Shown: piece by piece, positions 16,922 to 51,965 of the stretch
Numbering within the stretch: position 1 is the stretch's first letter
Layout: each line of letters begins with the position of its first letter
Assembly (NCBI GenBank): GCA_039932315.1
Contig: JBDTQG010000006.1
Span: forward strand, 10,160-74,159
DNA length: 64,000 nt
Direction of reading: 5' to 3'
DNA from: Thermoanaerobaculia bacterium
GTDB taxonomy: Bacteria > Acidobacteriota > Thermoanaerobaculia > Multivoradales > JAGPDF01
Program-made: the position numbers and the translations under genes
Notes under the pieces: model-generated
The model's database searches: none
Told to the model about the DNA's origin: nothing
The model's input: only the letters and a program-made list of their open reading frames with translations

Positions 16922-17596
16922 TCAGAGACCGATCGCCGTCGACCAGTGGCAGGCACCGCCGCTCTCCGTCTCGAATCCGTCGACGTAGATCCGCGGCTGG
17001 ATGCCGAGATAAAGGCGGTCGATCTCGACGACGAACTGCGGTACGTCGACCGTCATCGGATTCGCATCAACCACGAACGCCACAGCCTGCGCCGAGGCGG
17101 CCAGCGTCACCGTTCCGCCGATCGAGTTCCAGGTTCCCGACGGATTGGCGAAGACGGGAGCCGAGAATCCAAGGTTTGTCGAGCAAGTCGGGTCGCTGAA
17201 CTGCTGGATCGCGAGCCGGGTCCAGACGTTGGCGATCGTGCGGTAGAGAGCGCCGATTTCGAGCGTCGGCGTCGCCACCGGATCGACCGGAATGCACTCG
17301 TGCGAGTACATGGCGAAGTACTGGCTCGAGGCCGACTGGGCGGACATCGCGAGCCCCGCGTTCGAGCCCGGACAGCCGCCCGAATCGAGAGTCAGCGACA
17401 AACTCCCGGGGCCCACCGACCAGTCACCCGGCACCGAGCCCGGATCGAACTCGCCGTTGGTGATCAGGTTCTGCGCGGAGGCGGCATTCAGACAACTGAG
17501 TACGGCGAGAACGCTCAGACCGACACTCTGGCAGCGGAACGGGCGAATCGAGCGGAACGAGCGGAACGAGCGGAACGAGCGGAACGACCGGAACAT
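16922..17596 (-). CDS. Secreted CBM4_9/galactose-binding-like domain protein ending in the GFExG-x4-W C-terminal tail
   Basis: Start at MFRSFRSFRSFRSFRSIRPFRCQSVGLSVLAVLSCLNAASAQ (signal peptide). The mature N-terminus NLITNGEFDPGSVPGDWS resembles a CBM4_9 first strand. The C-terminus is IYVDGFETESGGACHWSTAIGL*. Confidence 0.55.
   Translation of the reverse strand: MFRSFRSFRSFRSFRSIRPFRCQSVGLSVLAVLSCLNAASAQNLITNGEFDPGSVPGDWSVGPGSLSLTLDSGGCPGSNAGLAMSAQSASSQYFAMYSHECIPVDPVATPTLEIGALYRTIANVWTRLAIQQFSDPTCSTNLGFSAPVFANPSGTWNSIGGTVTLAASAQAVAFVVDANPMTVDVPQFVVEIDRLYLGIQPRIYVDGFETESGGACHWSTAIGL
17530..17596. repeat. 9-nt tandem repeat (GAGCGGAAC)x5 encoding (FRS)n at the N-terminus of a signal peptide
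   Basis: cgagcggaa cgagcggaa cgagcggaa cgagcggaa cgaccggaa immediately 3' of the ATG (minus strand). Confidence 0.8.
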
Positions 17597-17651
17597 TGGG
17601 AATCTCCTCTTCTCCGATCCGTGCAGAGAGCGGACGATTCGTATCAACCGG

Positions 17652-19274
17652 CTAGAGAACGGCAGCGCTCCAGGAGAAGGACGAACCGAGCTCGAAGCCA
17701 TCGGCGAAGAGCGCGCCGTAGAGAACGATCTCTCCTCCCGCCGCGATGCCGATGCCCTCGACCGTGCGGAAAGGTGTTCCCAGGACCAGATCCGCGCAAC
17801 CGTTGTCGTCGAAATCTCCGGCGGTGAGCGTCATCCCGACCTGCTGACCGACCTGGGCGGTGCCTGGAATTCCCGAGAAGCCGGGGGAGAGGAAGCGGAA
17901 ATAGTGCGCCAGGCCGCCGGGGCTGTCGCCGGTGAGAATCGTCACGCCGCCCCGTTCGCTCCCGGTCGCGCCGAGGTCCTCTCCCGGCTGGCCGATCGCG
18001 AGATCGTCCCGGCCGTCGCCATCGAAGTCCCCGGCGGCGAGCGCCGAACCGAAGCGGTCGCCCTCCTGCTGTGCCGCGGCGCCGAAAAGCATGCCCTGAT
18101 CGAAAGACTCCGCCGTGGAGAAATAGAGAACGGTGACCCGTCCGACCGAAAACCGCGGCTGGCCGGAAACGGTGAAGCCCACCATCGGCGCGCCGATCGC
18201 GAGATCGTCGGTGCCGTCGGCGTCGAAATCGCCGGCCGCGAGGGCCGCGCCGAAGTGGTCGCCGCTCGCCGCGCCGACGACGATCGGGCTGCGCGAGAAG
18301 TTGAGCCCGGAAGCCCCGCCGTAGATGCGCTGCACCGAGCCCGTGCTGCCGTTCTCGAACTGGACACCGATCGCGAGGTCATCCGCACCGTCGTTGTCGA
18401 AGTCACCGGCCGCGAGGACCTCACCGAAGTAGTTGGCGGAAGCGACGTTTCCCTCGACCCCCGGTTCCGCCCGCGACACGAGGTAGCCGCGAAAGGGCAG
18501 CAGTCCCGTCGCGGCGCCGTGGAAGACGGTGACCGTTCCGGCGTCGGTAAAGCCCTGGACCTCTTCGAACGGCGAACCCACCGCGAGGTCGTCGAACCCG
18601 TCGGCGTCGAAATCTCCGGCGGCGAGGCCGTTGCCGAACTGGTCGTTGTTCGCCGGCGTTCCCGGAATCCCGGCGACACCCTGTCGCAGGAACTCGGCGC
18701 CGACGAGCTCGATCTCTCCGGCGCGGCCGTAGAAGATCTCGACGCCGCCGGCCGTCGGAGCGCCGGTCTTGTTCTGCGGGATGCCGACCGCGAGGTCGTC
18801 GATCCCGTCGCCGTTGAAATCTCCCGCCGCGAGCGACCAGCCGAAGAGCTCGTTCGGCTCCGCGGGGTCGGGGCTGCCGGACGCGAGCTGCGTCAGGTAG
18901 GTGTCGGCAAGCCCGGGTTCGAGACGCCTTCCCGGCAGGCCGTAGCGGATGACGACGGCGCCCGTCCCCGGAATCGGATCGTTGACGAATCCGCTGTCGA
19001 GCGGCAGACCGGTCGCGAGGTCGTCGATGCCGTCGCCGTTGAAATCGCCGGCGACGACGGCGAGGCCGAACTGCTCGCCGGCCTCCGGCCCGTAGAAAAG
19101 AAGGTCCTCGCTCCCGAAGATCTGCGCCCCGACGCTCGACAGTCCGACGGAGGCGAGCTGCGCCGCCGCCGGACCGTTTCCCGCGGCGAAAACCAGCAGC
19201 AACGCGACGCCGTTGCAGATCGAAATCGGGATCGACGGAAACGAGCGCAGGCCGGGCAGATTTCGAGGTCGCAT
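17652..19274 (-). CDS. Secreted FG-GAP (integrin-alpha-like β-propeller) repeat protein
   Basis: Signal peptide, then at least 7 repeats of the AGDFNGDGxDDLAxG type (AGDFNGDGIDDLATG, AGDFDADGFDDLAVG, AGDFDNDGADDLAIG and others). The C-terminus is LYGALFADGFELGSSFSWSAAVL*. Confidence 0.75.
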   Translation of the reverse strand: MRPRNLPGLRSFPSIPISICNGVALLLVFAAGNGPAAAQLASVGLSSVGAQIFGSEDLLFYGPEAGEQFGLAVVAGDFNGDGIDDLATGLPLDSGFVNDPIPGTGAVVIRYGLPGRRLEPGLADTYLTQLASGSPDPAEPNELFGWSLAAGDFNGDGIDDLAVGIPQNKTGAPTAGGVEIFYGRAGEIELVGAEFLRQGVAGIPGTPANNDQFGNGLAAGDFDADGFDDLAVGSPFEEVQGFTDAGTVTVFHGAATGLLPFRGYLVSRAEPGVEGNVASANYFGEVLAAGDFDNDGADDLAIGVQFENGSTGSVQRIYGGASGLNFSRSPIVVGAASGDHFGAALAAGDFDADGTDDLAIGAPMVGFTVSGQPRFSVGRVTVLYFSTAESFDQGMLFGAAAQQEGDRFGSALAAGDFDGDGRDDLAIGQPGEDLGATGSERGGVTILTGDSPGGLAHYFRFLSPGFSGIPGTAQVGQQVGMTLTAGDFDDNGCADLVLGTPFRTVEGIGIAAGGEIVLYGALFADGFELGSSFSWSAAVL

Positions 19275-21581: not shown

Positions 21582-21587
21582 GTGCGG

Positions 21588-23407: not shown

Positions 23408-23905
23408 CTAGTCGCGAACAGCGTCTACGATGAGGTCCCATCTCGAACGAAACGGCTCCAGACTCCAGCCTGTACCCTCCCTTAGAGGGGGCAGGTGCAC
23501 CGCACGAAACTTGTTCTCCTTGCTCCTAGCCTGACCGTTCATGCCAGGAGTTGCTTCCCAGATCCTATGGTTCTCAGAAACTGCTTTCGAGAGTTCGAGC
23601 GAAGGAATCACGAAGAACTCGAAGGCCTTCGTGGATTCAGGCGCTGGAATTCCAGCAAGGACCCAGAAGAAGGACTTGCCGAAGTCCTTTTCCGCCTTCA
23701 GCCCGACGGCGCATGTCCCCCCACCTGGAATGAATGCTTTCACCTGGACGTGGACGAATCGAGTTGCAACAGAATTGCTTACGAGAATGTCCGTGTTCGG
23801 GCAGTTTCCCATCGTCACGACCGCGACCAACTCACGCCGACAGAGCTCTCCTGCAACAAAGAACTGGGCCGCGTCCGCTCGATACCCCTTGTCGCTACGC
23901 GTCAT
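23408..23905 (-). CDS. Hypothetical small protein with PD-(D/E)XK-like motif, co-operonic with the RM enzyme and EVE-HNH
   Basis: VVTMGNCPNTDILV...FVHVQVKA (hydrophobic strand-D ... hydrophobic-Q-x-K). Its start overlaps the RM gene stop by 11 nt and its stop abuts the EVE-HNH start. Confidence 0.4.
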   Translation of the reverse strand: MTRSDKGYRADAAQFFVAGELCRRELVAVVTMGNCPNTDILVSNSVATRFVHVQVKAFIPGGGTCAVGLKAEKDFGKSFFWVLAGIPAPESTKAFEFFVIPSLELSKAVSENHRIWEATPGMNGQARSKENKFRAVHLPPLREGTGWSLEPFRSRWDLIVDAVRD

Positions 23906-26819: not shown

Positions 26820-26840
26820 GTGGCGCGAGCGCTGCCGACG

Positions 26841-27107: not shown

Positions 27108-27113
27108 TCGTAC

Positions 27114-28427
27114 CTAAGGTTCGGTTGCCGACCATTCGAGGAAGTTGCCGGTTTCGAACGCTGACCAGAAGATGGTTGCACTTCGATCGTAGAATGTACC
27201 CGCGGGGTCAGCCCTGATCTCAACTCTAATTCGCGGAGAGCTGGATGGAGGCGCCATCGTATAGTGGAGTACAGCTCCTGGTTGCAAGAAGGACTCTACG
27301 ATCGCTGCCTTGCAAAAACCCACCGGCGGCGGTGCTGGACCGGACGGCACAAAGGCGAGCTCGACTTCCGCGTTGGCGCAGTCGAGCTCCAGGCTTAGGT
27401 GAACGCTGTAGTCGTCGGCGGTCGCGGCTATTCGATCCGCGCCGGTCATAGCAAATCGAATCATGTTGACATCTTCGGCCACAAGGCCCGAAAGTCGCGT
27501 TCCGGAACCAATCTTCGAGTACATAAGAGATTGCGTCCCGGGGTGCTGAAGCGAAGACGCGACGAATTCATTCGCGGAGGCCGCGTAGTTGCTGCCTGTC
27601 GGAAGTACAGTTAGAGATCGGGAAAAAGAAGCCTGTTGAATTGTGGTGCTATCGATCAGGACTGGATCGTTGTCAGAGCGTCGAAACCAAGAAACCGATT
27701 GCACCTGCATGGGTTGAATCGGGCAGTTTGGGCCAGGGCAAGGGGGGCAACATGGAGTGCACGCGGTAGAGCCCGAACCTTGAAGGGCTGCGAGTCGCGG
27801 CAATTCCAGTTCCTGGAATGCCGGAATGAACGGGCATGCGTTGTTGTGAATATCTGTGCGGTCGCCGGGTGCCGAGCCCTGCGAAACATTTGTAGCATTG
27901 ACAGATGCCGCAAGACTAGTCAGCTGACCGCAGCCGCTTGGCCCGTCAAGATCGCAGACGCCCGTTCTCCAGTACTTCGCGTCGTTGTAGAGACCTCCGT
28001 CCTCCGACACGTCAAGCTCAACAAGATTTGAATGCCCAAGGCCCATCGCGCAATGCCCGAGCTCGTGAAGTACCACCCATTGTAGGCTGGCTTTCCCGGA
28101 CGGAGCGGGTTCATTGGAGGTCCAACAATCGAAGCAGTTTCCGTACCTTGCCTTCAGTTCGTTCCAAGTTTCGACCGCCGACAAAAGTGGCAAGAGTAGC
28201 CCCTCGCTTCCAGCTTCGACACAAATGCCAATTTCAATCGCCCCACCAGCCTGGAGATAACCCACAGGATGCACGATTGCAAACGGCGGAACGTAGTTTG
28301 GATCGGTCGAGGGGAGTCGACGGGTGAAGCGGTCGATCTCGAAATAGGTGCCGGCAGAAAGATCCGAAGTCATGGCCGCAGCGAGCGCAACCCCTAGCAG
28401 CACCAGTCGAACTCGCGTCAGTTTCAC
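27114..28427 (-). CDS. Secreted metzincin-like zinc metalloprotease ending in the GFExG-x4-W tail
   Basis: Signal peptide MKLTRVRLVLLGVALAAAMT, then the zinc-binding motif VVLHELGHCAMGLGHS (HExxHxxGxxH) and a Cys/Pro-rich linker. The C-terminus is FWSAFETGNFLEWSATEP*. GC is lower than the genome background. Confidence 0.6.
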   Translation of the reverse strand: MKLTRVRLVLLGVALAAAMTSDLSAGTYFEIDRFTRRLPSTDPNYVPPFAIVHPVGYLQAGGAIEIGICVEAGSEGLLLPLLSAVETWNELKARYGNCFDCWTSNEPAPSGKASLQWVVLHELGHCAMGLGHSNLVELDVSEDGGLYNDAKYWRTGVCDLDGPSGCGQLTSLAASVNATNVSQGSAPGDRTDIHNNACPFIPAFQELELPRLAALQGSGSTACTPCCPPCPGPNCPIQPMQVQSVSWFRRSDNDPVLIDSTTIQQASFSRSLTVLPTGSNYAASANEFVASSLQHPGTQSLMYSKIGSGTRLSGLVAEDVNMIRFAMTGADRIAATADDYSVHLSLELDCANAEVELAFVPSGPAPPPVGFCKAAIVESFLQPGAVLHYTMAPPSSSPRIRVEIRADPAGTFYDRSATIFWSAFETGNFLEWSATEP

Positions 28428-29041: not shown

Positions 29042-29065
29042 GGAGCGCTCCTTTTCGTGCGTCGT

Positions 29066-37513: not shown

Positions 37514-38872
37514 ATGCCTGTTCATCCGCTCCGATTGTCGATCCTCCTGTTCGTCCTCTGTTCGACCCTTTCGCTGCGCTCGGCCCGCGCCGGCAGCGGC
37601 GGCGATGGCACACTCGACCCCGCCTGGGGCGGCGACGGCATCTCGGGCGGTTTCACGAACACCGTTCCGCGCAGTGCTTTCGTATCCCACGACCAGCAGC
37701 TCTACTTCACGGGTCGGACGACGCTTCCCGACGAAACCGAGATGGAGTGGTGGCGCACACAGAACTCCGGCGACGACTCCTGGTACGGGTGCACTTACGG
37801 CCTTCCGTTCCTCGACCATTTCGACATTCGCGCCACGCTGGTCGACGTCTCTGGACATCTTTTGTTCGCCGGCACCGTGACGGTCTTCGGTTCCGAATCC
37901 GTCGAACGGGCGTTCGTCGCGCGCTTCACCCAGACCGAGGTCTGCTCGCTCGACTCCGCCTTCTCGGGCGATGGCTGGGAGATCTTCGACGACACGACAT
38001 TCTGCGACGACGAAGATTGCCGACTGATCGACATCGAGGCCTCGAACGACTCTTCGACCCGATACGTCGCGCTTCTCGAATCGGTACAGAACGCGCTGAT
38101 CTCGAAGTACTACCTCGTCGGACTCACTCAGAGCGGCGCTCTCGATCCGAATTTCGGCAGCGGTGGTTTCGCACCGGTCACCGCCGCGAACCTCGGTCTT
38201 CTGGGCGGGGGTAGTGGAGAGCTCGGCATCGATCGCTCCAACCGGCCCTACGTCCTGCTCTCCTTCTACGATCCGCTGGCAGATTTCGACCTCGACACTG
38301 CGCTGACCCGCTTCCAATCGGACGGCGATCTCGACACCACTTTCGGGGTCTCCGGGTCCTACTTCGTCCACAACGGAGATACGGTCGACACCGTTCCGTT
38401 GGCGCTCACGGTCGGCAGCGACGGACGGCTCGCGCTCACCTACCGCCTGCTCGACACGACCTTTTCGGGCCTCGTGGTCTTCGATGCGTCGATGAACCTG
38501 CTCCGGTCGACCACGTCGACACCGATCGAGTCCCGGGCACTCGCCTTCGACGGACTTGGCCGGCTGCTGGTGGCGAACGACCGGCTGGGGCAGGACGGGT
38601 TTCTCGTCACCCGCTATGCAAAAGACAGCTCCGGAGCGTTCGCGCTCGACGCGACTTTCGGCAGCGGCGGGAACGTCCAGGTGGACATCGACGGCGGCGG
38701 CGCCAACAACGAGGTGCCGATCGACCTGCAGCTCGTCGCCGGCCGGCCGATGGTTCTGGTCGACGCCAACCAGGACGGCGGCGGATCCCAGGCCTTCCTG
38801 GTCCGGCTCGAGACCCATCTCATCTTCGCCGACAGCTTCGACTGGGGGACGACGAGGTACTGGACGAACTAG
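37514..38872 (+). CDS. Secreted β-rich protein of unknown function ending in the tail motif
   Basis: Strong RBS plus ATG at 37514 and signal peptide MPVHPLRLSILLFVLCSTLSLRSARA. Repeated DxDxTFGxxG segments. The C-terminus is LETHLIFADSFDWGTTRYWTN*. Confidence 0.55.
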   Translation: MPVHPLRLSILLFVLCSTLSLRSARAGSGGDGTLDPAWGGDGISGGFTNTVPRSAFVSHDQQLYFTGRTTLPDETEMEWWRTQNSGDDSWYGCTYGLPFLDHFDIRATLVDVSGHLLFAGTVTVFGSESVERAFVARFTQTEVCSLDSAFSGDGWEIFDDTTFCDDEDCRLIDIEASNDSSTRYVALLESVQNALISKYYLVGLTQSGALDPNFGSGGFAPVTAANLGLLGGGSGELGIDRSNRPYVLLSFYDPLADFDLDTALTRFQSDGDLDTTFGVSGSYFVHNGDTVDTVPLALTVGSDGRLALTYRLLDTTFSGLVVFDASMNLLRSTTSTPIESRALAFDGLGRLLVANDRLGQDGFLVTRYAKDSSGAFALDATFGSGGNVQVDIDGGGANNEVPIDLQLVAGRPMVLVDANQDGGGSQAFLVRLETHLIFADSFDWGTTRYWTN

Positions 38873-42960: not shown

Positions 42961-45900
42961 TTAGGGAACCGTCACCGACCAGAGAGAGGTATTTCCCGTC
43001 TCGAAGTCGCCGTGGAAGATCGTCACCGGGACAGCCACGCAGTTCTGAACCTTGACGTCGTCGATGAACCAGGCGCCGTTCGGACGATTCACCGAGCTGT
43101 CCGAAGCGAAACGGAAGCCGAACTGCACCGTCTGGCCGGCGAAGGCGCTGATGTTCACCACCGACCGCGTGAGCGGCTGCGGATCACCGCACCAAGCCTG
43201 CAGACCGCCGATCGGACTCGTGAACTGCGTGCTCACCGGACCGTCGTAGGGGTCGGTCAGAAGGTTCGCTCCGACGATCTGGGTGAACGTCGCCCCACCG
43301 TCCGTCGAGGCTTCGAGGATGGCACCGTCGAAACAGCCGGTGGTGCCGTTGTGCTCCATCTCCTGGGCGCTCCAGTACTGCAGCGTCAGACCCGAGCCGC
43401 TCGCCGGCAGGATGATCGCCGGGGAGACGAGACGCTGGTCGGAAACGATGCTCGGGCTCGAGGCTCTCCAGGAAGCCGTGCCGGAGTGCGGATTGAGCGC
43501 CGACTGGGCCCAGCTGTTGCCCGTCCCCGAGGAGGTCCAGCCGTTGGCACCGGTCTCGAAGCCGTAATCGTAAAGGCTGGCCGCGGACGTCCCGAGCCCG
43601 CAGTCGCCGGGCAGGGCGACCGTCGAGAACGACCGCGCCGCCGAGTAGCCGCCGTTACCGCAGGTGTTGATGCCACGGACACGCCAGAAGAGCTCTACGT
43701 TCGACGGCAGGTCGGGCGAGACCGTCGTCGACGTCGTTGCCGTCGTGGCGGTCCGGATGACATTGGCGAAAGCGTTGTCCGTTGCCACCTGAAGCTCGTA
43801 CGACGCGACGCCGGTCTGCGCCGCCCAGGTGAAGCTGGTCGCGAGCGGAACGTTCGTCGCACCGGCGCCCGGCGCCGTGAGCGACGGCGCTCCCGGTGAA
43901 GCCGCATAGGCCGTCAGCTGAAGCACGAGATTGAAGCTGGTCGAGCCATCGTTGCCGTTGACGGTGATCGGGTAGTCGCCGGCGGCGACGGCTGCCGTGT
44001 TGCCGATCGTCAGCGTCGACACCGCAGGAAGAGTTCCGACCACCGGATTCGGCGACAGGTTCGTCGTCGAACCCGCCGGGTTGCCACTGACACCGAGAGT
44101 GACCGGAGAGACGAACGGCGGGGTGACCGTAAGCGAATAGACCGCATCGGTGCCGGTGCAGATCGAGACCGCGCTGTTCGCGGCGCCGAGTCCCGCGGAA
44201 GGCGTGACATTCAAACAGCTGCTCGCGGCGCCCATGCAGGCGTCGCTCGCCCCGAACGGCGCGACGACATAGGAGTAAAGCCGGCCGTTCTTCAGCCCGG
44301 CATCGTGGAAGAAGAGCGAGCTCGTCGTGCCGACCATCGCCTTGCCGAAGTTGCAGCCGAACTCGCCTTCCGTGCGATAGATCTTGTAGCGCGTCGCGTT
44401 CGGCACGGCCGGCCACGAGATATCCGCAGCGGTGTCGTTCGGGCTGATGGTCGCCGTGACCGCTGCCGTCGGACCGCCGGCACAACCGCTGACCGTCACG
44501 GCGGGTGTCGCGCACCCGATCTCATGGCGATTGAACGCGTTGGCGATCGACGTCATGTGCGGCGTTCCGTCGGCGAGGCTGCCGTTGTCATCGTCGGCGC
44601 CGAGCAACTGCTGATAGCCGGAGGTGGCGGCGCAGCCGGCGGTGCCTACGGTCGTCCCGAACCAGGTCGTGACGTTGTCGGCACCCATGAAGGCGATCCG
44701 CGTCGCGACCTCGATCGCGGTGTTGGCGTCCATGCCCAGAAGCGGCAGGTCGCGCTTCGCCAGATCCCAGATCGCTTCGGCGTAGAGGGCGCCGCGGCAG
44801 TGGACGTTGCTGCTGGGGCACTGGGCGTTCCCGTTCGCCCAAGTCAGGGTATGCGGAATGGCCGACGTGCGGTGCGCCCAGTCGATGTCGCGGATGCCGG
44901 TGCAACCCGACGCGACTGTGCAGGGATCGCCGTAGCCGCCGCAGAGATCTGTGGTGAAGCCACGCCCGACGCACGAGTTGTCGAGGCGGAGCGCCGCATA
45001 GACGTCGGCGATGCCTTCACCGGGAGTCGAGACGCCGTTCGCGGTGCCGTTGAAGTCGAGTCCATGGCCCCATTCGTGATCGAACACGCCGGCGAGCTCG
45101 CCGGTGTTGAAGCAGCCGCCGCCCGAACGGTAGAAGTTCACCGTGAAGTTGGTGTTGCTCCAGAAAGCATTGCAGGTCAGGTTGATGTTCATGTTGGAGG
45201 TGAGCTGGGCGTTGAGCCAGGTGCTGGCCGGGCCGGCGCTCCACTGACCCCGAGCCATCTCCTTGATCCGGTTGAGCTCGTAGTAGCCGGTGCGGGAGGC
45301 ATGCGTGTCGCCCGCCGAAGCGCCGCTCGGAATGGCGCAGTCGGTGCCGGCACTGACGCCGAGCTCGAGATCGCCGCTGGCGCTGCTCTGGTTGACGGCG
45401 CCGCAGTTGTCGACGATCTTGATGTAAGGCCCGACGAGCTGGGTGGTCATGTTGCCGGTGACGCCGAAGATGTTGCCACCGGAGTCGGCGTTGGCCGTGC
45501 CGCTCGTGTGCGTCACGGTTGCGAAAGGCATCGGATATCCCGGCTGTTCGACGCCGTCCGGAACCTGTCCGTCGTTCGAGGCCGGGAGAACACCGCCATT
45601 GATGTTGCGCGTGGCGTAGCTATTCATGTCCTGGAAGAAAAGGACCTCGCCGCTGTGCGCATCGATCGCGGCCTCGTAGCTCTCGTTGCGACCCGCGAAC
45701 TGCGGCTCGACGATCCATGCCAGCCGGTGCGTGTAGCCGTGGCCGGGCGCGCCGTCGACGCCGACCGGCAGCAGCTCGAGGTGCGGCTTCGCGCTATAGC
45801 CGGACGGCGTGAACGCTTCGAGGTGCGCCACCAGGAGATTCATCGCCTCACTCGCTGAGATCGACGGCTCCGTCGAGACGTCGATCTTGCCCCACTGCTC

Positions 45901-46473
45901 GGCGCCGAGAAGAATGAGATTGCCGTGGCTGACCGTCGCCACGAGGCTCGAACCGCGCACCGGCACGCCGTTCACCTGACGCAGGCCGCGAATCTGGATG
46001 AAGTCGCCGCTTTCGTCGACGCTGGTCCTCGGCGTCAGCTCTTCGGCCGGGATGCGGAGCTCCGCCCGGTGCGCGTCGAGGTAGCGGACGAGCCCGTTCC
46101 AGGCGGAAAGACCCAGCTCGGATTTCGCCGGAGCTTGGCTCTCTCCGAGAGCGGCCCAGGTGAGGTCGTTGCCGACGCCGTCACCCGGAATGAGGGGCGC
46201 GCTCAGCCAGAGCGTGGCCCACTGGCCTCCTCTCGCGTCGATGAAGGCGTAGCGGGAGTCCAGCCCGAGGCGCGCGAGATCGTCGGAAAGTCGGCCGGCG
46301 ACCGCGGACTCGAGCTCCGAAACGGACTTGAGCGAGGGCTCGGTTGCGAGGCCGGCCAGGCGGACTTCCTTGTCCGCGAGGGGCGAAGCCTGCGGCACGG
46401 TCAACGCCGAGGTGATGCCTGCGACCGAGAGGAGAAGGGCGGATGCGGCGAGACAGCGATACCTCTGGTTCAT
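42961..46473 (-). CDS. Large secreted HExxH zinc metalloprotease with fibronectin-III-like and MAM/CBM-like domains, ending in the tail motif
   Basis: Start at MNQRYRCLAASALLLSVAGITSA (signal peptide). Zinc site VFDHEWGHGLDF. FN3-like segments (PNATRYKIYRTEGE, ASYELQVATDNAF). An internal jelly-roll domain begins YDYGFETGANGWTSSG. The C-terminus is PVTIFHGDFETGNTSLWSVTVP*. Confidence 0.7.
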   Translation of the reverse strand: MNQRYRCLAASALLLSVAGITSALTVPQASPLADKEVRLAGLATEPSLKSVSELESAVAGRLSDDLARLGLDSRYAFIDARGGQWATLWLSAPLIPGDGVGNDLTWAALGESQAPAKSELGLSAWNGLVRYLDAHRAELRIPAEELTPRTSVDESGDFIQIRGLRQVNGVPVRGSSLVATVSHGNLILLGAEQWGKIDVSTEPSISASEAMNLLVAHLEAFTPSGYSAKPHLELLPVGVDGAPGHGYTHRLAWIVEPQFAGRNESYEAAIDAHSGEVLFFQDMNSYATRNINGGVLPASNDGQVPDGVEQPGYPMPFATVTHTSGTANADSGGNIFGVTGNMTTQLVGPYIKIVDNCGAVNQSSASGDLELGVSAGTDCAIPSGASAGDTHASRTGYYELNRIKEMARGQWSAGPASTWLNAQLTSNMNINLTCNAFWSNTNFTVNFYRSGGGCFNTGELAGVFDHEWGHGLDFNGTANGVSTPGEGIADVYAALRLDNSCVGRGFTTDLCGGYGDPCTVASGCTGIRDIDWAHRTSAIPHTLTWANGNAQCPSSNVHCRGALYAEAIWDLAKRDLPLLGMDANTAIEVATRIAFMGADNVTTWFGTTVGTAGCAATSGYQQLLGADDDNGSLADGTPHMTSIANAFNRHEIGCATPAVTVSGCAGGPTAAVTATISPNDTAADISWPAVPNATRYKIYRTEGEFGCNFGKAMVGTTSSLFFHDAGLKNGRLYSYVVAPFGASDACMGAASSCLNVTPSAGLGAANSAVSICTGTDAVYSLTVTPPFVSPVTLGVSGNPAGSTTNLSPNPVVGTLPAVSTLTIGNTAAVAAGDYPITVNGNDGSTSFNLVLQLTAYAASPGAPSLTAPGAGATNVPLATSFTWAAQTGVASYELQVATDNAFANVIRTATTATTSTTVSPDLPSNVELFWRVRGINTCGNGGYSAARSFSTVALPGDCGLGTSAASLYDYGFETGANGWTSSGTGNSWAQSALNPHSGTASWRASSPSIVSDQRLVSPAIILPASGSGLTLQYWSAQEMEHNGTTGCFDGAILEASTDGGATFTQIVGANLLTDPYDGPVSTQFTSPIGGLQAWCGDPQPLTRSVVNISAFAGQTVQFGFRFASDSSVNRPNGAWFIDDVKVQNCVAVPVTIFHGDFETGNTSLWSVTVP

Positions 46474-46654: not shown

Positions 46655-48289
46655 ATGCCGCTGTCTCGTCGCTTCCTTCGTCTCCGGACGATCCGTCCCG
46701 TCGCTCCCTTCTTGTCGCTGCTGTTTTCTTTTCCGGCGTTCTCCCCTGCACAGGCAGTCGCACCCGCAAACGTGGACCCCTGGGTGCTCGACGCAATGCA
46801 GCGATCGACGCGATCGACGCGGTCGACACGATCTGCGCCATCTGCGCCGGGCAGCGCGGGGACGAGCGAATTCCTCATCGTCATGAAGGAGCAGGCCGAC
46901 CTCTCGGGTGCGGCACGGTTGTCGACGAAAGCCGAGAAAGGCCGCTTCGTCGTCGAGCGTCTGCGGGAGACAGCGGCGCGATCGCAGTCGCCGGTTCTCG
47001 CGACTCTCGCCGCTGCGGGCGTCGAGCACCGCTCGTACTGGGTCGCCAATCTCATCTGGGCGAAGGGCGACGCGAATCTCGTCGCCACTCTCGCCGCGCG
47101 CTCCGATGTGCGCGGAATCGCAGCCAATCCCGTCGTCGCCGGGGAGCGCTCGCGGAGCGGCCAGCTGCCGGACTCTCTCCTCCCCGAAACCTTCGATGCG
47201 ATCGATGCCGTCGAGTGGAACATCTCTCTCGTGAACGCTCCCGCCGTCTGGGCCCTGGGCTATTCCGGTCAGGGCGCGGTCGTCGCGGGCGAAGACACGG
47301 GCTACGACTGGACTCACCTCGCGCTCAAGAGTCACTATCGCGGCTGGAACGGCGCGACGGCGGACCACAACTTCAACTGGCACGACGCGATTCACTCGAG
47401 CACGGGCGACTGTTCAGGCAATCACACCGAACCGTGCGACGACGTCGATCACGGTTCGCACACGATGGGCACGATGGTCGGCGACGACAACAGCGGAAAT
47501 CAGATCGGCATGGCGCCGCAGGCGAAATGGATCGGCTGCCGCAACATGGATCAGGGAAACGGCACTCCCGCGACGTACACCGAATGCTGGCAGTGGATGA
47601 TCGCCCCGACAGATCTCGCGAATGCCAACCCCGATCCAGCGAAGGCGCCGGATGCGATCAACAACTCCTGGGGCTGCCCCGCGGCGGAGGGTTGTGACGC
47701 CAACGCGACGGAAGCGATGCGCCTCGTCGTCGAGAGCGTCCGCGCCGCCGGGATCGTTCCGGTCTCGTCGGCAGGCAACAGCGGCTCCGGCTGTTCGAGC
47801 GTCAGCACACCGGCGGCGATCTACGACGCCATCTTCACCGTCGGCTCGACGACAATCAGCGACTCCATTTCGTCCTTCTCGAGTCGCGGGCCGGTCACCG
47901 TCGACGGCAGCAATCGCCGCAAGCCCGACATCGCGGCTCCCGGAAGCAACGTCCGCTCTTCGGTTCCCGGCGGTGGTTTTGCTTCCTTCAGCGGCACCAG
48001 CATGGCGAGTCCGCACGTCGTCGGGCTCGTCGCGCTGCTGATCTCCGCTGAACCGGCTCTTGCCGGCAACGTCGAGCGGATCGAAGAGCTCATCCGGGAG
48101 GGCGCTGTGCATCTCACCTCGAGCGCCCAGGTCTGCGGTGGACTCTCCGCGACGGTCTATCCGAACAATACATTCGGCTTCGGCCGCATCGACGCGATGG
48201 CGTCGATCGACCTGCTTCTCGCCGGTCTGCTCTTCCGCGACGGTTTCGAGAGCGGCCTCACCGACGACTGGACGCCGACCCTCCCCTGA
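46655..48289 (+). CDS. Secreted subtilisin-like serine protease (peptidase S8) ending in the tail motif
   Basis: Catalytic triad contexts VAGEDTGYD (Asp), DHGSHTMGT (His), GTSMASPHV (Ser). Signal peptide and propeptide present. The C-terminus is LLFRDGFESGLTDDWTPTLP*. Confidence 0.85.
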   Translation: MPLSRRFLRLRTIRPVAPFLSLLFSFPAFSPAQAVAPANVDPWVLDAMQRSTRSTRSTRSAPSAPGSAGTSEFLIVMKEQADLSGAARLSTKAEKGRFVVERLRETAARSQSPVLATLAAAGVEHRSYWVANLIWAKGDANLVATLAARSDVRGIAANPVVAGERSRSGQLPDSLLPETFDAIDAVEWNISLVNAPAVWALGYSGQGAVVAGEDTGYDWTHLALKSHYRGWNGATADHNFNWHDAIHSSTGDCSGNHTEPCDDVDHGSHTMGTMVGDDNSGNQIGMAPQAKWIGCRNMDQGNGTPATYTECWQWMIAPTDLANANPDPAKAPDAINNSWGCPAAEGCDANATEAMRLVVESVRAAGIVPVSSAGNSGSGCSSVSTPAAIYDAIFTVGSTTISDSISSFSSRGPVTVDGSNRRKPDIAAPGSNVRSSVPGGGFASFSGTSMASPHVVGLVALLISAEPALAGNVERIEELIREGAVHLTSSAQVCGGLSATVYPNNTFGFGRIDAMASIDLLLAGLLFRDGFESGLTDDWTPTLP

Positions 48290-48299: not shown

Positions 48300-48330
48300 G
48301 CCGCGCAGCGCGGCTAGCGCGCTGCGCGGC
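48300..48330. terminator. 13-bp-stem palindrome between the convergent S8 protease and cytochrome genes (candidate bidirectional terminator)
   Basis: GCCGCGCAGCGCG-gcta-GCGCGCTGCGCGGC. It begins 11 nt after the S8 stop and overlaps the last codons of the cytochrome gene. Confidence 0.5.
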
Positions 48331-50071
48331 GACGCCGCAGAACGAACCAGCCGGCAGCCGCGAGAAGCGCTGCGGCGGTCGCGAGCCCGGTCGGAGAAAG
48401 CGCCGGGATCTCGATGACACCGCCGGTACCTTCGACCACGATCGTCGCTTCGTTGCGCGCCACCTCGACCTCGATCGGGTCGCCGTGCGTGGTCACTGTC
48501 CACCCCTTGGTGACCGCGAGGGCGCGCCAGGCGCGACGATAGAGAAGCACCGCGGTGACCTCGACGTTCGATCCCGCGGGCGTCCCCGGCGGCACGGCGA
48601 ACTCGACCTCGGTCGTGTCAATCGTTCCGGAGGGGATCGTGGTGAGCGAGAAAACGCTCTCGGCATCGATGAACAGGACCGGCATCACCACCGGCCCCTG
48701 CCCGTTGATCCGCCCCTGCAGCACCTTCGCGAAGCCCTTGCCGGGCTGACCGGCGAGATCGCCCGGCTGATCGCCCGGGACGTCGTCCGAGCCCCAGAAC
48801 GGAATCTTCGGACCGGAGACCTGCGCGAGCGGCTGCCCGTTGAGGGTCGCCGTGATCCACAGCATCGCGTTGCGGATCGAGATCCCGGTGGGGAAGTCGT
48901 GCCCGGCGCCGAAGTTGTCGATCGAACTCGTGACCTTGACGTTTCCGGACGGCAGCTGCGCGGCGCTGCTCGTGAGCGCGATGTTCGCCGACAGCGTTTG
49001 CGGCGTCGAGCCGATGAACGTGTGCGCGTGGCGCTGCGCGCTCTGTCGTGTCGGCGCTCCGAATTCGCAGTTCTCGCCTTCGCCCGCGAGGTTCGGCATG
49101 TGGCAGTCCTGACAGACCTTGTAGTTCGGGCCGGGCGTGCCGTACGGCGAGCTCTGCCATTCGAGGAAGGTGTTCTGCCCCGGGGCGTCGGTCGTCGGGT
49201 TGTGGTACTGATGGCAGGAGGCGCAGATCTGGGATTTCGTGTGCAGCAGCGAGTAGGACGGTCTCATCAACGAGAACGTGACGTCGTTCATCGGTCCCCA
49301 GACGTACGAGGCCGTCGAGGCGCCCTTCGATGGAACCGGAAAGCGGTAGGTCGCCTTGCCGCGGTGATGGAGCGCATTGATGTGCGACTCGTCGATCGAA
49401 TCCATCTGATGGCAGGTGACACAGATCACGCCCTGGGCGCCGTTCGGTTCCGTGGCCTCGTCGAGCGGCACGCCCTCGGGCCGCGGATCCTGCAGGTCCT
49501 GCATCGGCGCGTGGCAGGTGGCGCAGAAGCCGGTTTCGCCCGGATCGTGACTGTTCTTGAAGACATAGCCCGCGCTCCCGCCGGGCGTCCCCGTTCCCGA
49601 GAACAGATCGAGCACCCACTTGTTCTGCGCCGTGTAGGCGTGGTGCGAGGTCGTCCACTGCTTGTAACGCTCGAAATGGCAGGCACCGCACTCGGAAACA
49701 TCGGGCGGCACGTAGCTCGGATCGTTCGTCGTCGACATCTCTTCCATGCGGATGTCGATGCCGGTATCTCCGTCGGCGGCCGTCGCGCCACCGATGATGA
49801 AGTTCTGCGGCGCGCTGCGCAGATAGGGAATCGACGCCGCGAGAAAGACCAGGCCCGGCGGGATGCCGGTGAGAGTGAAGCTGCCGTCGGCGGCGGAGAA
49901 AGTGCCGGGAGTCGTCAAGTCGGCCTGGATGTGAACGTAGGCCCCGGCGATCGGCGTTCCCGGCTCTCCGCTGCCTTCGACCCGGACGAGACCGGAGACG
50001 TCCGCTGACGCCGACGTGGCGATCGTCCAGAAGGCGGCAAAAGCGAACGTGCAGATCCGGCTGCGGGCCAT
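48314..50071 (-). CDS. Pentaheme c-type cytochrome with N-terminal carboxypeptidase-regulatory-like domain and PEP-CTERM/IPTL-CTERM-like anchor
   Basis: Start at MARSRICTFAFAAFWTIATSASA. N-terminal CarboxypepD_reg-like β-sandwich (GLVRVEGSGEPGTPIAGAYVHIQ...ADGSFTLTGIPPG). Five CxxCH sites (CGACH, CATCH, CVTCH, CASCH, CQDCH). The C-terminus is IEIPALSPTGLATAAALLAAAGWFVLRRRRAAR*. Confidence 0.7.
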   Translation of the reverse strand: MARSRICTFAFAAFWTIATSASADVSGLVRVEGSGEPGTPIAGAYVHIQADLTTPGTFSAADGSFTLTGIPPGLVFLAASIPYLRSAPQNFIIGGATAADGDTGIDIRMEEMSTTNDPSYVPPDVSECGACHFERYKQWTTSHHAYTAQNKWVLDLFSGTGTPGGSAGYVFKNSHDPGETGFCATCHAPMQDLQDPRPEGVPLDEATEPNGAQGVICVTCHQMDSIDESHINALHHRGKATYRFPVPSKGASTASYVWGPMNDVTFSLMRPSYSLLHTKSQICASCHQYHNPTTDAPGQNTFLEWQSSPYGTPGPNYKVCQDCHMPNLAGEGENCEFGAPTRQSAQRHAHTFIGSTPQTLSANIALTSSAAQLPSGNVKVTSSIDNFGAGHDFPTGISIRNAMLWITATLNGQPLAQVSGPKIPFWGSDDVPGDQPGDLAGQPGKGFAKVLQGRINGQGPVVMPVLFIDAESVFSLTTIPSGTIDTTEVEFAVPPGTPAGSNVEVTAVLLYRRAWRALAVTKGWTVTTHGDPIEVEVARNEATIVVEGTGGVIEIPALSPTGLATAAALLAAAGWFVLRRRRAAR

Positions 50072-50228
50072 CGGGTCAGGTCCTCCGAAGAGTGGGAACC
50101 GGCTCATTCTCCGTCATCGTCCGGGCGCTGGCTAGCCTGCTGCGGCGTTTTCTGCGGCGAGGCCTCCGCCCCTGTTGCCTCCTGCACAGCCCGCGTCCCT
50201 CGAGCGCCACAAAATCCGCCTTACTGTC

Positions 50229-51965
50229 ATGAGAAAACACTGGCTGGTGGCCGTCTTCGTCGCGGCAGCGCCGCTCCTCGCCGAACCGGTCCGGGCCGAC
50301 ATCGGTCTCTCGCTGGCGTATGTCGACCTCGGATCGCCGGCCTACGCGCGTTTCAAGAGCTTCGTCGATCAGGCGGTCGGGGGAAACCCGGGCTATGCCT
50401 TCTCCGCCACGGACGCGGTCTACATGTACAAGCTGACCGGCCAGCCGCAGTATGCGACGCTCGCCATCTCCTGGGTGGAGGATCAGGTGACCGCCGCCGA
50501 GGCGGCGATCGCCAGCAGCCAGAGCCCCGAGATCGCCGGCGACTCCTATCTCGCGGTCGGCGGAATGCTGCGCGACGTGGCGCTGGTCTACGACTGGTGC
50601 TATCCGCTGCTCACCCCGACGCAGCGCACCCGCTGGGCGGCCTACGCCGATCAGGCGGTCTTCAATGTCTGGAACCACGCCACGGCGAGCTGGGGCGGGC
50701 ACCCTTTTCCCTGGTCGGGCTGGTCGGTCGACAACCCCGGCAACAACTATCACTACAGCTTTCTCGAAGCGACGATGTACTGGGGCTTCGCCGGCGACCG
50801 GCAGAACTGGATCGACTACCTCGCGAACACCAAGCTGCCCGCTCTGGTCTCCTACTTCCAGGCGCTGCCCGGCGGCGGGAGCCGCGAAGGCACCGGCTAT
50901 GGCGTCGCTCTCGGCCGGCTCTTCGAGATCTACCGCCTGTGGAAGGACTCGACGCCGACGCACGCCGATCTCGGCGCCCAATCGACGCATCTCGCCGACA
51001 CTCTGGACTACTGGATTCACGGAACGGTACCGACGCTCGATCGCTACGCGCCGATCGGCGATCTCTCGCGCGAGTCCTATCCCTCGCTCTACGACTATCA
51101 CCGCAACCTGGTGCTCGAAGCCCGCGCCATGACCGCCGCGCCCGGCGGCACCGCCGTCGCCGCACGCGCGAGCTGGTGGCTGCACCACATCGCGGTCGAC
51201 GAGATGACGTCGGGCTTCAACTTCCGCGACGACCTCCTGCCGGCCGGCTCGACACAGACGCAACCCACGGCGCTCTTTCATCATGCGACCGGCGCGGGGC
51301 ACCTCTTCGCGCGCCGCAGCTGGGCGACGGACTCGCCATGGATCTCCTTCGTCGCGGGGCCGTACGTCGAATCGCACGCCCATCAGGACCAGGGCGCATT
51401 CAACTACTTCCACAACGACTGGCTGGCGGTGACGGAAAACATCTGGAGCCACAGCGGCATCGAACAGGGAACCGAGATCCACAACACTCTCCGCTTCCTG
51501 AACGGCAGCGCGACGATTCCGCAGACCGAGAGCACTTCGTCGATGACCGTCAGCGACAGCGCCGGCGTGCTGCACGTCGCCGCCAATCTGACTCCGGCGT
51601 ATGCATCTTCCGGGGTCATCAGCAACTGGCAGCGCGCTCTGGACTTCGATTCGACCAGCCTGACGGTGACGGACAACTGGAGCGCGGCCGGCGGCGTGAC
51701 CGCGGTCTTTCAGGTCAACGTTCCGGCGACGCCGAGCGTCACCGCGGGAGTGATCACCGCGGGCGCACTGCGGATCCGCCCGATCACTCCGGCGAACCCG
51801 GCGATTTCGATCGTCAACTGGCACAACGTCGACACCGAGGAGTTCAACTCCGGCTACAAGGTCGAGCTCCGTGGCGGCACGGGAACCTACGTCGTTCGAC
51901 TCGAGTACCTCGGTGGACTGTTCTCGAACGGCTTCGAGAGCGGCAACTTCAACGCCTGGGACTGA
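50229..51965 (+). CDS. Secreted heparinase II/III-like / alginate-lyase-like polysaccharide lyase family protein ending in the tail motif
   Basis: Signal peptide MRKHWLVAVFVAAAPLLAEPVRA. N-terminal α/α-toroid-like region and Hepar_II_III-like β-sandwich (VESHAHQDQGAFNYFHNDWLAV). The C-terminus is LEYLGGLFSNGFESGNFNAWD*. Confidence 0.55.
   Translation: MRKHWLVAVFVAAAPLLAEPVRADIGLSLAYVDLGSPAYARFKSFVDQAVGGNPGYAFSATDAVYMYKLTGQPQYATLAISWVEDQVTAAEAAIASSQSPEIAGDSYLAVGGMLRDVALVYDWCYPLLTPTQRTRWAAYADQAVFNVWNHATASWGGHPFPWSGWSVDNPGNNYHYSFLEATMYWGFAGDRQNWIDYLANTKLPALVSYFQALPGGGSREGTGYGVALGRLFEIYRLWKDSTPTHADLGAQSTHLADTLDYWIHGTVPTLDRYAPIGDLSRESYPSLYDYHRNLVLEARAMTAAPGGTAVAARASWWLHHIAVDEMTSGFNFRDDLLPAGSTQTQPTALFHHATGAGHLFARRSWATDSPWISFVAGPYVESHAHQDQGAFNYFHNDWLAVTENIWSHSGIEQGTEIHNTLRFLNGSATIPQTESTSSMTVSDSAGVLHVAANLTPAYASSGVISNWQRALDFDSTSLTVTDNWSAAGGVTAVFQVNVPATPSVTAGVITAGALRIRPITPANPAISIVNWHNVDTEEFNSGYKVELRGGTGTYVVRLEYLGGLFSNGFESGNFNAWD

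Follow-up and report, generated by a model that had tools for sequence, protein, structure and literature searches.

A recurrent C-terminal hairpin-like tail on unrelated exported proteins of Thermoanaerobaculia-type Acidobacteriota: a candidate sorting tag

C-terminal sorting tags predict cell-surface and secreted proteins more reliably than any other feature, and each of LPXTG, PEP-CTERM and the T9SS CTD has pointed the way to a machine dedicated to secretion or anchoring. Dockerins, which are non-catalytic C-terminal tags on many exoenzymes, dock to the β-sandwich receptor cohesin. Exosortase, sortase and rhombosortase signals were recognised because one tail recurred on different proteins, and the same logic brought out the element described here, which resembles PEP-CTERM, IPTL-CTERM, MYXO-CTERM, GlyGly-CTERM and LPXTG in being a short, lineage-specific C-terminal tag on many unrelated exported proteins. 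Its carriers belong to an acidobacterial class that is globally distributed, abundant in sediments, soils and engineered systems, and almost uncultured.

A common tail on seven exported proteins

The window (the whole stretch of DNA analysed, 64 kb from a Thermoanaerobaculia MAG, Acidobacteriota) encodes seven unrelated exported proteins that carry a common C-terminal tail before a genuine stop codon (Table 1). All ORFs translated as originally predicted, with the quoted tails, and all seven products start with a signal-peptide-like sequence. The metzincin-like protein showed a weak Peptidase_M10 match (Pfam), and the S8 subtilase is identical to the NCBI entry 'S8 family serine peptidase [Thermoanaerobaculia bacterium]'. 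The layout of the tail is Φ-F-x-D-G-F-E-x-G-x4-W-(S-x-x-Φ-P)-COOH; the motif proposed earlier stands, while its length of about 15 residues has to be extended to a conserved unit of about 20, usually ending in W-S-x-x-Φ-P-COOH. Outside the window the consensus is sharper ([LI]FxDGFE[ST]G[DN]TSxWSxTVP), the window copies being rather degenerate examples, and it can be divided into a hydrophobic strand (Φ-F-x-D-G-F-E), a tight turn ([ST]-G-[DN]-T-S) and a second strand (x-W-S-x-T-V-P-COOH). The tails are net acidic and rich in D/E and F/W, and they contain neither a hydrophobic stretch of 13 or more residues nor an R/K cluster, in agreement with the predicted lack of a TM helix and of basic residues. 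As a glycosylation sequon, G-[DN]-T-S would presumably have the wrong spacing for the bacterial D/E-x-N-x-S/T and Bacteroidetes D-[ST]-[AILVMT] motifs.

Table 1. Tails and related features of the window; each tail is followed by its stop codon.
Feature	Position	Strand	Protein or context	Evidence
Tail RIYVDGFETESGGACHWSTAIGL	16922..16993	-	224-aa exported jelly-roll-like protein, gene 16922-17596	translation, DNA, stop codon
Hairpin-like motif NLITNGEFDPGSVPGDWS	17417..17470	-	mature N-terminus of the 16922-17596 protein; 'domain-start' context of the tail motif	
Tail ALFADGFELGSSFSWSAAVL	17652..17714	-	FG-GAP repeat protein, gene 17652-19274	Pfam FG-GAP E=1e-57
Tail TIFWSAFETGNFLEWSATEP	27114..27176	-	metzincin-like protein, gene 27114-28427, lower-GC segment	
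Tail LIFADSFDWGTTRYWTN	38819..38872	+	delta-60/DUF5122-like β-propeller protein, gene about 37514-38872	
Tail TIFHGDFETGNTSLWSVTVP	42961..43023	-	1170-aa HExxH metalloprotease, gene 42961-46473	
Complete MAM / cleaved-adhesin / choice-of-anchor-J-like jelly roll	43024..43590	-	directly precedes the tail of the HExxH metalloprotease	
Tail LLFRDGFESGLTDDWTPTLP	48227..48289	+	S8 subtilase, gene 46655-48289	
Tail GLFSNGFESGNFNAWD	51915..51965	+	heparinase-like protein, gene about 50229-51965	

Some tails deviate from this layout. In that of the jelly-roll-like protein, the turn is longer by an insertion of 2 residues, and shortened tails are found in some carriers, including two in the window: a degenerate variant on the β-propeller protein, which stops 2 residues past the W, and that of the heparinase-like protein, which stops 1 residue past it. 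Vicinamibacteria S8 orthologues terminate in '...WIFADGFDPDI'. Given these truncated tails, the recognised element, if any, may be the first strand only.

A regular expression for the core (F[ED]x[GSN]x3-5W), applied to the six-frame translation of all 64 kb, gave eight matches, six of them 1-5 residues ahead of a stop codon and two at the internal and N-terminal 'first-strand' copies named in the original prediction; the seventh tail, at 16922, escaped the pattern because of its insertion. TGA, TAG and TAA are all used as stop codons, and the tails are followed by a convergent gene, the start of the next gene or a terminator-like hairpin. No frame-shifted domain continuation was present downstream of the tails in any frame of the window DNA, which agrees with an earlier check of the FG-GAP and S8 genes for ordinary CBM domains running on in another frame; read-through or frameshift continuation was rejected on these grounds. 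The tails have no DNA repeat in common beyond what their conserved residues force, and an origin from a DNA repeat or MITE was likewise rejected, since synonymous and variable positions differ and flanks are not shared.

The enrichment at C-termini over internal positions that had been proposed as a test was found in an independent sample of 460 genes from 120 related loci, from which the genes used to find the loci were excluded: the stricter core F[ED]xGx4W occurred 11 times terminally and twice internally (binomial P=1.3e-12, the terminal window being 5.7% of residues). Single-copy matches in the profile search lay at the extreme C-terminus, with the W exactly five residues from the end in 50 of 72 terminal matches. 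Terminal Pro was present in 96% of the tails ending five residues after the W (pooled alignment), a set made up mostly of loci that had been found through a DNA pattern with Pro fixed at that position, and in 11 of the 26 carriers ascertained otherwise.

Conservation, cargo and distribution

The tail is under purifying conservation, being kept in 65 of the best 120 S8 homologues (55-70% identity) with F/D/G/F/E/G/W/P constant and the flanks variable; it is a real, selectively maintained C-terminal module common to unrelated exported proteins. Among 1.84 billion proteins, the tail profile retrieved 2,648 cluster representatives at E<=1e-3, and two homology searches, with the tail alignment and a synthetic double tail, added 16 and 47 short candidates as extra examples. 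Genome loci of 8 kb each, at least 120 in number, were found by a DNA pattern for the tail plus stop, and among the neighbouring genes of the loci sampled, the tail occurs on about 6%. As many as 109 of the 120 loci listed are labelled Acidobacteriota (51 Thermoanaerobaculia-group, 22 Holophagae and 36 unspecified), so the predicted lineage-wide occurrence is upheld; the tail is restricted to this lineage among the loci listed, a sample of unspecified order that may not be representative. No cultured organism was seen among the tail matches. The further claim that the tail is read on acquired cargo found no support: a homologue of the lower-GC metzincin, likewise with the tail, is encoded by another Thermoanaerobaculia MAG (L013), so that the metzincin is a lineage family rather than foreign cargo.

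The cargo is diverse. By BLAST, 138 carriers fell into 70 similarity clusters, and the 89 carriers scanned match 64 Pfam families, which include FG-GAP, S8, BNR, β-helix, MAM, cytochrome c7, C1, M14, M4 and cadherin-like families; many carriers are proteases. Outside the window, 91 of 107 complete carriers begin with a signal-peptide-like sequence, with lipoboxes in few. The carriers have soluble enzyme, propeller or β-helix folds, and an outer-membrane β-signal (the last strand of a barrel, with an aromatic end, usually F) was rejected for these non-barrel proteins, many of whose tails end in Pro. Neighbourhood clustering of 503 non-carrier ORFs from 120 loci yielded no receptor, peptidase or translocon candidate. 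Beside ordinary transporters, the sole recurrent neighbour was a Ser/Thr kinase family (10 of 120 loci), and both kinase and transporters were set aside as uninformative with regard to cognate genes.

Relatives carry other anchors where the tail would stand. Carriers match NCBIfam families defined by other sorting signals, namely LPXTG S8, rhombotarget A, choice-of-anchor B/J/Q and the myxosortase-, rhombosortase- and T9SS-dependent M36 families. S8 homologues that lack the tail have, at their C-terminus, an SLH-like region, a T9SS CTD or a TM-plus-basic tail, and one SLH-ended relative is itself from Thermoanaerobaculia. The tail thus substitutes for other anchors, with which a sorting or anchoring role fits; the tag as originally predicted is upheld in respect of this position, not of function as such. 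The neighbouring cytochrome (window gene 48314-50071) scored above the cut-off for IPTL-CTERM, TIGR04174 (NCBIfam), and hairpin tails and IPTL-like tails stand at about 30 to 2 among neighbour genes; a tail system separate from the TM-type signals of the same genome is supported. No Pfam or NCBIfam model matches the tail in the seven window proteins and 89 other carriers, a PDB sequence search with the tail profile returned chance matches only (including a WD40 blade of SWD1), and no description of it was present in the literature searched (motif strings, sorting signals, Thermoanaerobaculia), so that the label 'undescribed' was justified.

The jelly-roll hairpin and possible roles of the tail

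In sequence, the tail equals the first β-hairpin of ConA-like/MAM/CBM jelly rolls with the rest of the domain absent. The β1-β2 signature ΦFxDxFExGxxxxW, which lies N-terminally in these domains (ConA-like, MAM, CBM4_9, PF14099, choice-of-anchor J), is present in both; the jelly rolls continue for ~175 further residues, whereas the tail adds a conserved T-V-P-COOH end. For internal motif copies, the alignment begins at position 1-2 of PF14099, position 4 of CBM_4_9 and position 3 of choice_anch_J, and the tail profile also retrieves the starts of jelly-roll domains; the resemblance to a first strand that had been noted earlier is thus confirmed by domain alignments. The jelly roll of the window metalloprotease opens with the same hairpin motif (YDYGFETGANGWTSSG), scored 28.7 bits with NCBIfam choice_anch_J (cut-off 30) besides matching rhom_dep_M36, and was modelled by AF2 as a confident β-sandwich with Foldseek matches to gingipain K1/K3, MAM and CBM27. 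A full-domain HMM of 196 positions, searched against 940 kb from about 90 genomes of the lineage, gave about 100 matches, all to positions 1-18, after which the tails stop. Because the genomes are matched only via these 18 positions, the tail is not a by-product of local jelly rolls.

In AlphaFold2 models, the tail was undocked both on the S8 subtilase (pLDDT 38-50) and on the metalloprotease fragment (residues 195-215, pLDDT<50), and the subtilase and the jelly roll ahead were themselves modelled well. With low confidence, these models suggest that the tail may stand outside the cargo fold; since isolated hairpins often score low, the low AF2 confidence is weak evidence.

We infer, with the balance tipping slightly in its favour, that the tail serves the Sec-exported proteins of Thermoanaerobaculia-type Acidobacteriota as a C-terminal address or docking tag, specific to this lineage and read in trans. 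More tentatively, and with a little less than even confidence, it may be the cargo signal of an unrecognised envelope sorting system of Thermoanaerobaculia/Holophagae-type Acidobacteriota, in the form of a 20-residue TM-less hairpin descended from the first hairpin of a lectin-like jelly roll, with β-augmentation as the means of its capture. After Sec export, the tail would protrude from the folded cargo as a flexible peptide, acidic and aromatic in character; its F/F/W face would then be captured in trans, through β-strand augmentation, by an envelope component that the lineage dedicates to this task, and which would take the cargo through the outer membrane, retain it there or at the cell surface, or do both. 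Counting against a tag, the linker is nearly absent and the tail directly follows the last secondary-structure element of the cargo; a missing flexible linker is unusual for a docking tag.

Alternatively, the tail might insert as the missing β1-β2 hairpin of a partner jelly roll and so tether cargo to a scaffold, much as in donor-strand exchange in pili, which we consider unlikely. Besides the free, undocked tail of the models, this reading draws on the match in sequence between the tail and the hairpin that opens ConA-like/PF14099, CBM_4_9 and MAM/choice-of-anchor-J domains: the residues conserved in the tail are also conserved in the domains' own first hairpin, where they are taken as core-facing and where the prominent F, F and W would be buried. 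However, no significant match to the 196-position HMM started after the hairpin in the 940 kb from about 90 genomes, a sample too thin to exclude a single-copy acceptor, which would probably have been missed, and no recurrent partner gene adjoins the carriers. The original proposal of strand complementation with a β-sandwich lacking strand 1 was therefore not supported in this sample, from which a single-copy acceptor could escape.

Slightly less likely again is a self-sufficient mini-module, comparable to a single choline-binding or cell-wall-binding repeat, whose hairpin would bind LPS/exopolysaccharide, Ca2+ or a mineral surface with no protein receptor. The motif originates from lectin-like domains, D/E and F/W are abundant in it, and tandem arrays with a period of 21-22 residues, which are typical of avidity-based binding repeats, do occur: P0186 has four internal copies, and P0142, P0147, P0150, P0162 and P0191 have 2-3 terminal copies each. 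Yet tandem copies are absent from all 150 carriers of the genome loci, binding by a lone hairpin of 20 residues would be weak, and a binding repeat needs neither the strong preference for the extreme C-terminus nor the fixed end. The near absence of a linker and the many proteases among the carriers would suit an element acting in cis, which packs on, caps or transiently chaperones its own preceding domain, for instance as a C-terminal pro-peptide or inhibitor of proteases. This is improbable, given that the tail stands behind domains of at least 64 Pfam families with no relation to one another, β-propellers, β-helices, cytochromes and lyases among them, and that AF2 docked it on neither the subtilase nor the jelly roll. 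A functionless stub of a lost jelly-roll domain, or an assembly or sequencing truncation, could be imagined from the complete jelly rolls that the motif opens in many multidomain proteins (35 of the best 150 profile matches have their last copy 169-198 residues ahead of the C-terminus), and from the jelly roll carried by S8 homologues of about 900 aa, but is largely refuted and very improbable, as those homologues have the jelly roll and then the tail, the stop position (W+5, after P) is the same in hundreds of independent genes and MAGs, orthologues of 55-70% identity conserve the tail, and other genes or terminator-like hairpins follow all three stop codons.

Proteases, lyases, sialidase-like BNR proteins, adhesin-like propellers and cytochromes all bear the tail, and an HMM for it would immediately improve exoproteome annotation in MAGs of the class and offer a handle for phylogenetic profiling toward the cognate machinery. 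If an unrecognised sorting system is indeed involved, the tail defines much of the exoproteome of an almost uncultured class; hairpin capture, if true, would amount to a novel and minimal principle of docking, and the tail might find use as a small tag for surface display.

Comparison with known C-terminal signals

Exosortase, sortase and rhombosortase signals stand in the same place as the tail, after choice-of-anchor domains. Exosortase/sortase-type signals are tripartite (motif, TM helix and basic cluster), whereas the tail has no TM helix or basic residues. It is not a PEP-CTERM, IPTL-CTERM, MYXO-CTERM or GlyGly-CTERM signal, given the lack of TM helix, basic cluster and NCBIfam match, nor a sortase signal, given the lack of an LPXTG motif, TM helix and basic tail. 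SLH domains, the alternative C-terminus of close S8 homologues, provide non-covalent retention at the cell envelope; they consist of helical modules of about 55 residues, three together as a rule, have pyruvylated cell-wall polymers as their ligands and are unrelated to the tail in sequence. Dockerins resemble it in having acidic units of ~22 residues that can be duplicated. They differ in being ~60-70-residue Ca2+-binding helical F-hand pairs, to which the tail has no sequence or predicted structural likeness; Dockerin (PF00404) matched none of the window proteins and did not figure in the top families found for the 89 carriers, and no cohesin-like partner was found.

The T9SS CTD (type A, TIGR04183/PF18962, and type B) of Bacteroidota differs from the tail of Acidobacteriota in being a folded Ig-like β-sandwich of about 70-100 residues, compared with about 20 residues and a single hairpin at most; the tail has no sequence likeness to it, no HMM match (seven window proteins and 89 carriers) and no AF2 fold. 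T9SS also has PorU/PorV, whereas no such partner was identified in the 8-kb loci of the tail. The two are alike in being TM-less C-terminal signals on many Sec-exported proteins, confined to one lineage, with dispersed cargo genes and similar cargo (proteases, glycosidases, adhesins and β-propeller/β-helix proteins, dozens to hundreds per genome), and homologues of the tail cargo include T9SS-dependent M36 and M6-like families and an S8 protein that carries PF18962. The tail would do the job that falls elsewhere to T9SS CTDs, sortase/exosortase-type signals, SLH domains or dockerins, and we infer for it recognition in trans, possibly by β-augmentation, with a role at the surface or in export.

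Tails of the window proteins and their consensus

Translation of the seven tail-bearing open reading frames (ORFs) exactly reproduced the sequences of the original prediction. All seven proteins start with a signal-peptide-like sequence, and their C-termini are variants of the pattern Φ-F-x-[DN/G]-[GD/S]-F-[ED]-x-G-x4-W with 1–6 residues after the W. When the six-frame translation of the entire 64-kb window was searched with a regular expression for the tail core, eight matches were obtained, six of them 1–5 residues from a stop codon and two being the internal or N-terminal 'first-strand' copies named originally; the seventh tail contains a two-residue insertion and is not among these matches. 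All three types of stop codon are used. As for the possibility that the tails are truncated domains, the DNA 3' of the tails continued the domain in no frame, as had been claimed for two of the genes: the S8 tail has a convergent gene 25 nt downstream, the FG-GAP tail the start of the next gene, the metalloprotease tail a terminator-like hairpin and the remaining tails unrelated sequence. A DNA-repeat origin was ruled out by comparing the DNA of the tails. Within the window (G+C content of 59–70%), seven of about 50 genes encode a tail, and the S8 protease is 100% identical to the NCBI entry 'MAG: S8 family serine peptidase [Thermoanaerobaculia bacterium]'. The initial observation was therefore confirmed, and its extent is much larger than the window alone could reveal.

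The tail was common to 65 of the 120 best S8 homologues (55–70% identity), with the W nearly always 5–8 residues from the C-terminus. In homologues of about 900 residues, a MAM-like jelly roll precedes the tail, which is the order also found in the 1170-residue metalloprotease of the window. Pooling of 272 distinct tails gave the consensus [LI]-F-x-D-G-F-E-[ST]-G-[DN]-T-S-x-W-S-x-T-V-P-COOH (20-residue consensus peptide: LIFADGFESGDTSAWSATVP), with per-position frequencies of F 97%, D 93%, G 92%, F 100%, E 99%, G 100% and W 100% in a set that was partly ascertained with a pattern fixing some of the scored positions. The same consensus emerged from the S8 set and from profile hits, both free of pattern ascertainment, and the pooled tails had no conserved linker upstream. 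At the sequence level, the tail is conserved and not accidental.

Features of the window (nucleotide positions; strand where reported)
Position	Strand	Feature	Remarks
7980-8090		Tandem repeat, 30-nt period	Apparently intergenic
14600-14705		Tandem repeat, 33-nt period	Apparently intergenic
16922-17596		Jelly-roll-like carrier
17533-17594		In-frame 9-nt tandem repeat, (FRS)x~6	Signal-peptide n-region of the 16922-17596 carrier
17652-19274		FG-GAP carrier
22565-23407		EVE-HNH protein	Adjoins lower-GC segment
23895-26819		MmeI-type restriction-modification gene	Full
26257-27093 and 29100-29955		Direct repeat of ~840 bp	MmeI 5' part plus upstream region, 77-78% identity
27114-28427		Metzincin carrier
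29066-29644		Truncated MmeI_N ORF
31320-33689	-	789-aa exported protein	No Pfam match; weak CFI-box-CTERM match mid-protein; mature N-terminus '...SLELVFEDHELSAWNFVVP' resembles shortened hairpin motif
36376-37008	-	210-aa protein	End '...IVEIPAIGPLGAVALALALAGLAMRRIVARRHPGS', similar to that of the cytochrome; no HMM match
37514-38872		Propeller carrier
42961-46473		Metalloprotease carrier
46655-48289		S8 protease carrier
46801-46833		In-frame 9-nt tandem repeat, (STR)x3	Just past the S8 protease signal peptide
48314-50071	-	Multihaem cytochrome, MtrC/ExtKL-like, 5 CxxCH	Ends '...VIEIPALSPTGLATAAALLAAAGWFVLRRRRAAR'; IPTL-CTERM TIGR04174, 23.1 bits (cut-off 20.5)
50229-51965		Heparinase-like carrier
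60188-63990		Fatty acyl-AMP ligase, small acyl-carrier-like ORF, type III PKS (DpgA/chalcone-synthase-like)	Right end; resembles a lipid or polyketide cluster with no relation to the tail
61326-61423		Tandem repeat, 27-nt period	Inside acyl-AMP ligase gene

The three tandem repeats with periods of 27–33 nt have 3.2–3.7 copies at 88–98% match.

Lineage and position of the motif

A degenerate DNA pattern for D-G-F-E-x-G-x4-W-x4-P-stop, scanned over one genome per species (185,579 species), identified at least 120 loci of 8 kb. Among the matches listed, 51 belonged to Thermoanaerobaculia or orders and families within this class (including Ca. Multivoradales and Ca. Sulfomarinibacteraceae), 22 to Holophagae and 36 to unspecified Acidobacteriota, while six were unclassified, four were labelled 'Deltaproteobacteria' (L009, L031, L052 and L060) and one Crocinitomicaceae (L063, CBDDLF010000007.1). 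Loci of one and the same genome were scattered through these matches, which argues against taxonomic ordering of the scan. L063 encodes a typical tail, and since its G+C content of 60% is atypical for Crocinitomicaceae, its taxonomic label or its binning is probably at fault; the four loci labelled 'Deltaproteobacteria bacterium' may be mislabelled as well. S8 orthologues from Vicinamibacteria (P0067, P0069, P0075 and P0091/P0281) end in the first strand of the tail only ('...AADWIFADGFDPDI', '...WIFADGFDPDI' and '...WIFADGFD'), and these half tails suggest that the tag has a shortened form in this sister class.

A 21-position profile of the tail had 2,648 matches (E ≤ 1e-3) in 1.84 billion representative proteins. 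Among the best 150 of the 2,648, 72 had a terminal copy, with the W exactly five residues from the end in 50 of them; 53 of the 72 were 3' gene fragments (<150 aa). The other 78 proteins had internal copies only, and in 35 of these the last copy lay 169–198 residues before the C-terminus, where the motif begins a C-terminal jelly roll. Such internal copies match the start of the PF14099 (ConA-like polysaccharide lyase), CBM_4_9 and DUF1080-like models. The C-terminal enrichment implied by the original prediction was borne out in 460 genes of related loci, from which the genes used to ascertain the loci had been excluded (strict core, 11 terminal vs 2 internal copies; P=1.3e-12).

Cargo and known sorting signals

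The listed loci (at least 120) and the window together contained 165 candidate tail ORFs, and a stricter tail test combined with a 150-residue minimum left 138 carriers in 70 BLAST clusters. Complete carriers (89) matched 64 Pfam families, among them FG-GAP, Peptidase_S8, BNR, β-helix, InhA-like MAM, sortilin-type propellers, cytochrome c7, C1, M14, M4 and cadherin-like families. A signal-peptide-like N-terminus was present in 91 of 107 complete carriers, and a lipobox-like motif in only four of the 107. Beyond the first carrier per locus, the listed loci encoded 30 further carriers vs about 500 other gene calls, a share (~6%) that is probably inflated by paralogue clustering.

Carriers fall in NCBIfam families whose definition rests on the sorting system, namely myxosortase-, rhombosortase- and T9SS-dependent M36 peptidases, LPXTG S8 peptidases, rhombotarget A and the choice-of-anchor B, J and Q domains. 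In S8 homologues that lack the tail, the C-terminus consists of SLH domains, a T9SS CTD (PF18962), a TM-plus-basic tail or another kind of short tail; one of the relatives with an SLH end comes from Thermoanaerobaculia as well. Judged from these ends, the tail occupies the position of the sorting signal in other lineages. Many tail-less S8 homologues of other lineages share another end, Φ-[YF]-[LF]-P-Φ-Φ-x(2-6)-COOH, often after DUF11 (for example ...YYVPIVHND, ...VYLPLLRKP, ...IYLPFISRAD and ...IFLPILVKAGIQ; proteins P0048, P0060, P0068, P0072, P0079, P0088, P0104, P0113, P0114, P0119-P0124, P0127, P0128 and P0130), which may be another undescribed C-terminal tag.

The tail had no model in NCBIfam (7 + 10 + 89 proteins scanned) or in Pfam (window proteins and 89 carriers) and lies outside the coverage of current family models. 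The NCBIfam library does pick up sorting signals of short length, as it detected the IPTL-CTERM of the window cytochrome; this bona fide signal also indicates that the organism has an exosortase-type system in addition. IPTL-like tails were found twice among 503 non-carrier ORFs of the listed loci. The tail was found in no PDB chain, neither its motif strings nor a description of such a tag were found in the literature searched, and the marine and soil Thermoanaerobaculia genomic studies, as searched, do not mention it.

The presumed 'HGT island' around the metzincin corresponds to a lower-GC segment (59–62% G+C, 23895-29955), in which the copies of the direct repeat bracket the metzincin gene and a gene for a 205-aa exported protein. 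This arrangement suggests a duplication or an insertion. As another Thermoanaerobaculia MAG encodes a homologue of the metzincin that also ends in the tail, this protein does not demonstrate the proposed reading of the tag on cargo acquired from elsewhere.

Structural context and interpretation

In an AlphaFold2 model of the window subtilase (70-sequence alignment; pTM 0.81), the catalytic domain was well modelled and the tail (residues 524–544) had no secondary structure (pLDDT 38–50). The C-terminal jelly roll of the metalloprotease was predicted as a confident β-sandwich (pTM 0.79) related by Foldseek to gingipain cleaved-adhesin, MAM and CBM27 folds, with the tail (fragment residues 195–215) undocked and below pLDDT 50. 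Being unstructured or undocked in both models, the tail seems to lie outside the cargo fold, which is weak evidence given that short hairpins often score low. A full-domain HMM built from 34 complete 196-residue jelly rolls starting with the motif matched about 100 ORFs among all ORFs of the listed loci and the window, always with positions 1–18 at the extreme C-terminus and never significantly through the jelly-roll body, so the hairpin is used alone in this lineage.

Our results show that Sec-exported proteins carry the tail as a modular C-terminal tag that is maintained by selection, is restricted to the lineage among the loci listed and replaces known anchors. The original interpretation was partly supported: the tag and its lineage-wide occurrence were borne out, and acquired cargo and the acceptor model have so far found no support. 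On balance, we favour a tag by which a lineage-specific envelope component would sort or dock the proteins, either for export or to retain them at the surface. Such a tag would be recognised in trans: the F/F/W face, which is conserved and taken to be buried where the hairpin starts a jelly roll, would be exposed in the free hairpin, as expected of a peptide captured through β-augmentation.

That the tail specifically complements a jelly roll, whose first hairpin it resembles, is unlikely; the full-domain HMM matched no 'hairpin-less' copy in 0.94 Mb, a search that a single-copy acceptor would escape, and the simple acceptor model is unsupported so far. We consider a direct ligand-binding mini-repeat rather improbable: tandem hairpins with a 21–22-residue period occur in a few proteins and in none of the 150 carriers from the genome loci. 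A role in cis, as an element for folding or capping, appears quite improbable beside the undocked tails of both models, and a relic or artefact is hardly credible for so conserved a sequence.

The proposed sorting or docking tag is of high interest for envelope biology and for the annotation of Acidobacteriota MAGs. C-terminal sorting tags as such are already known; the tail is architecturally unlike every described class.
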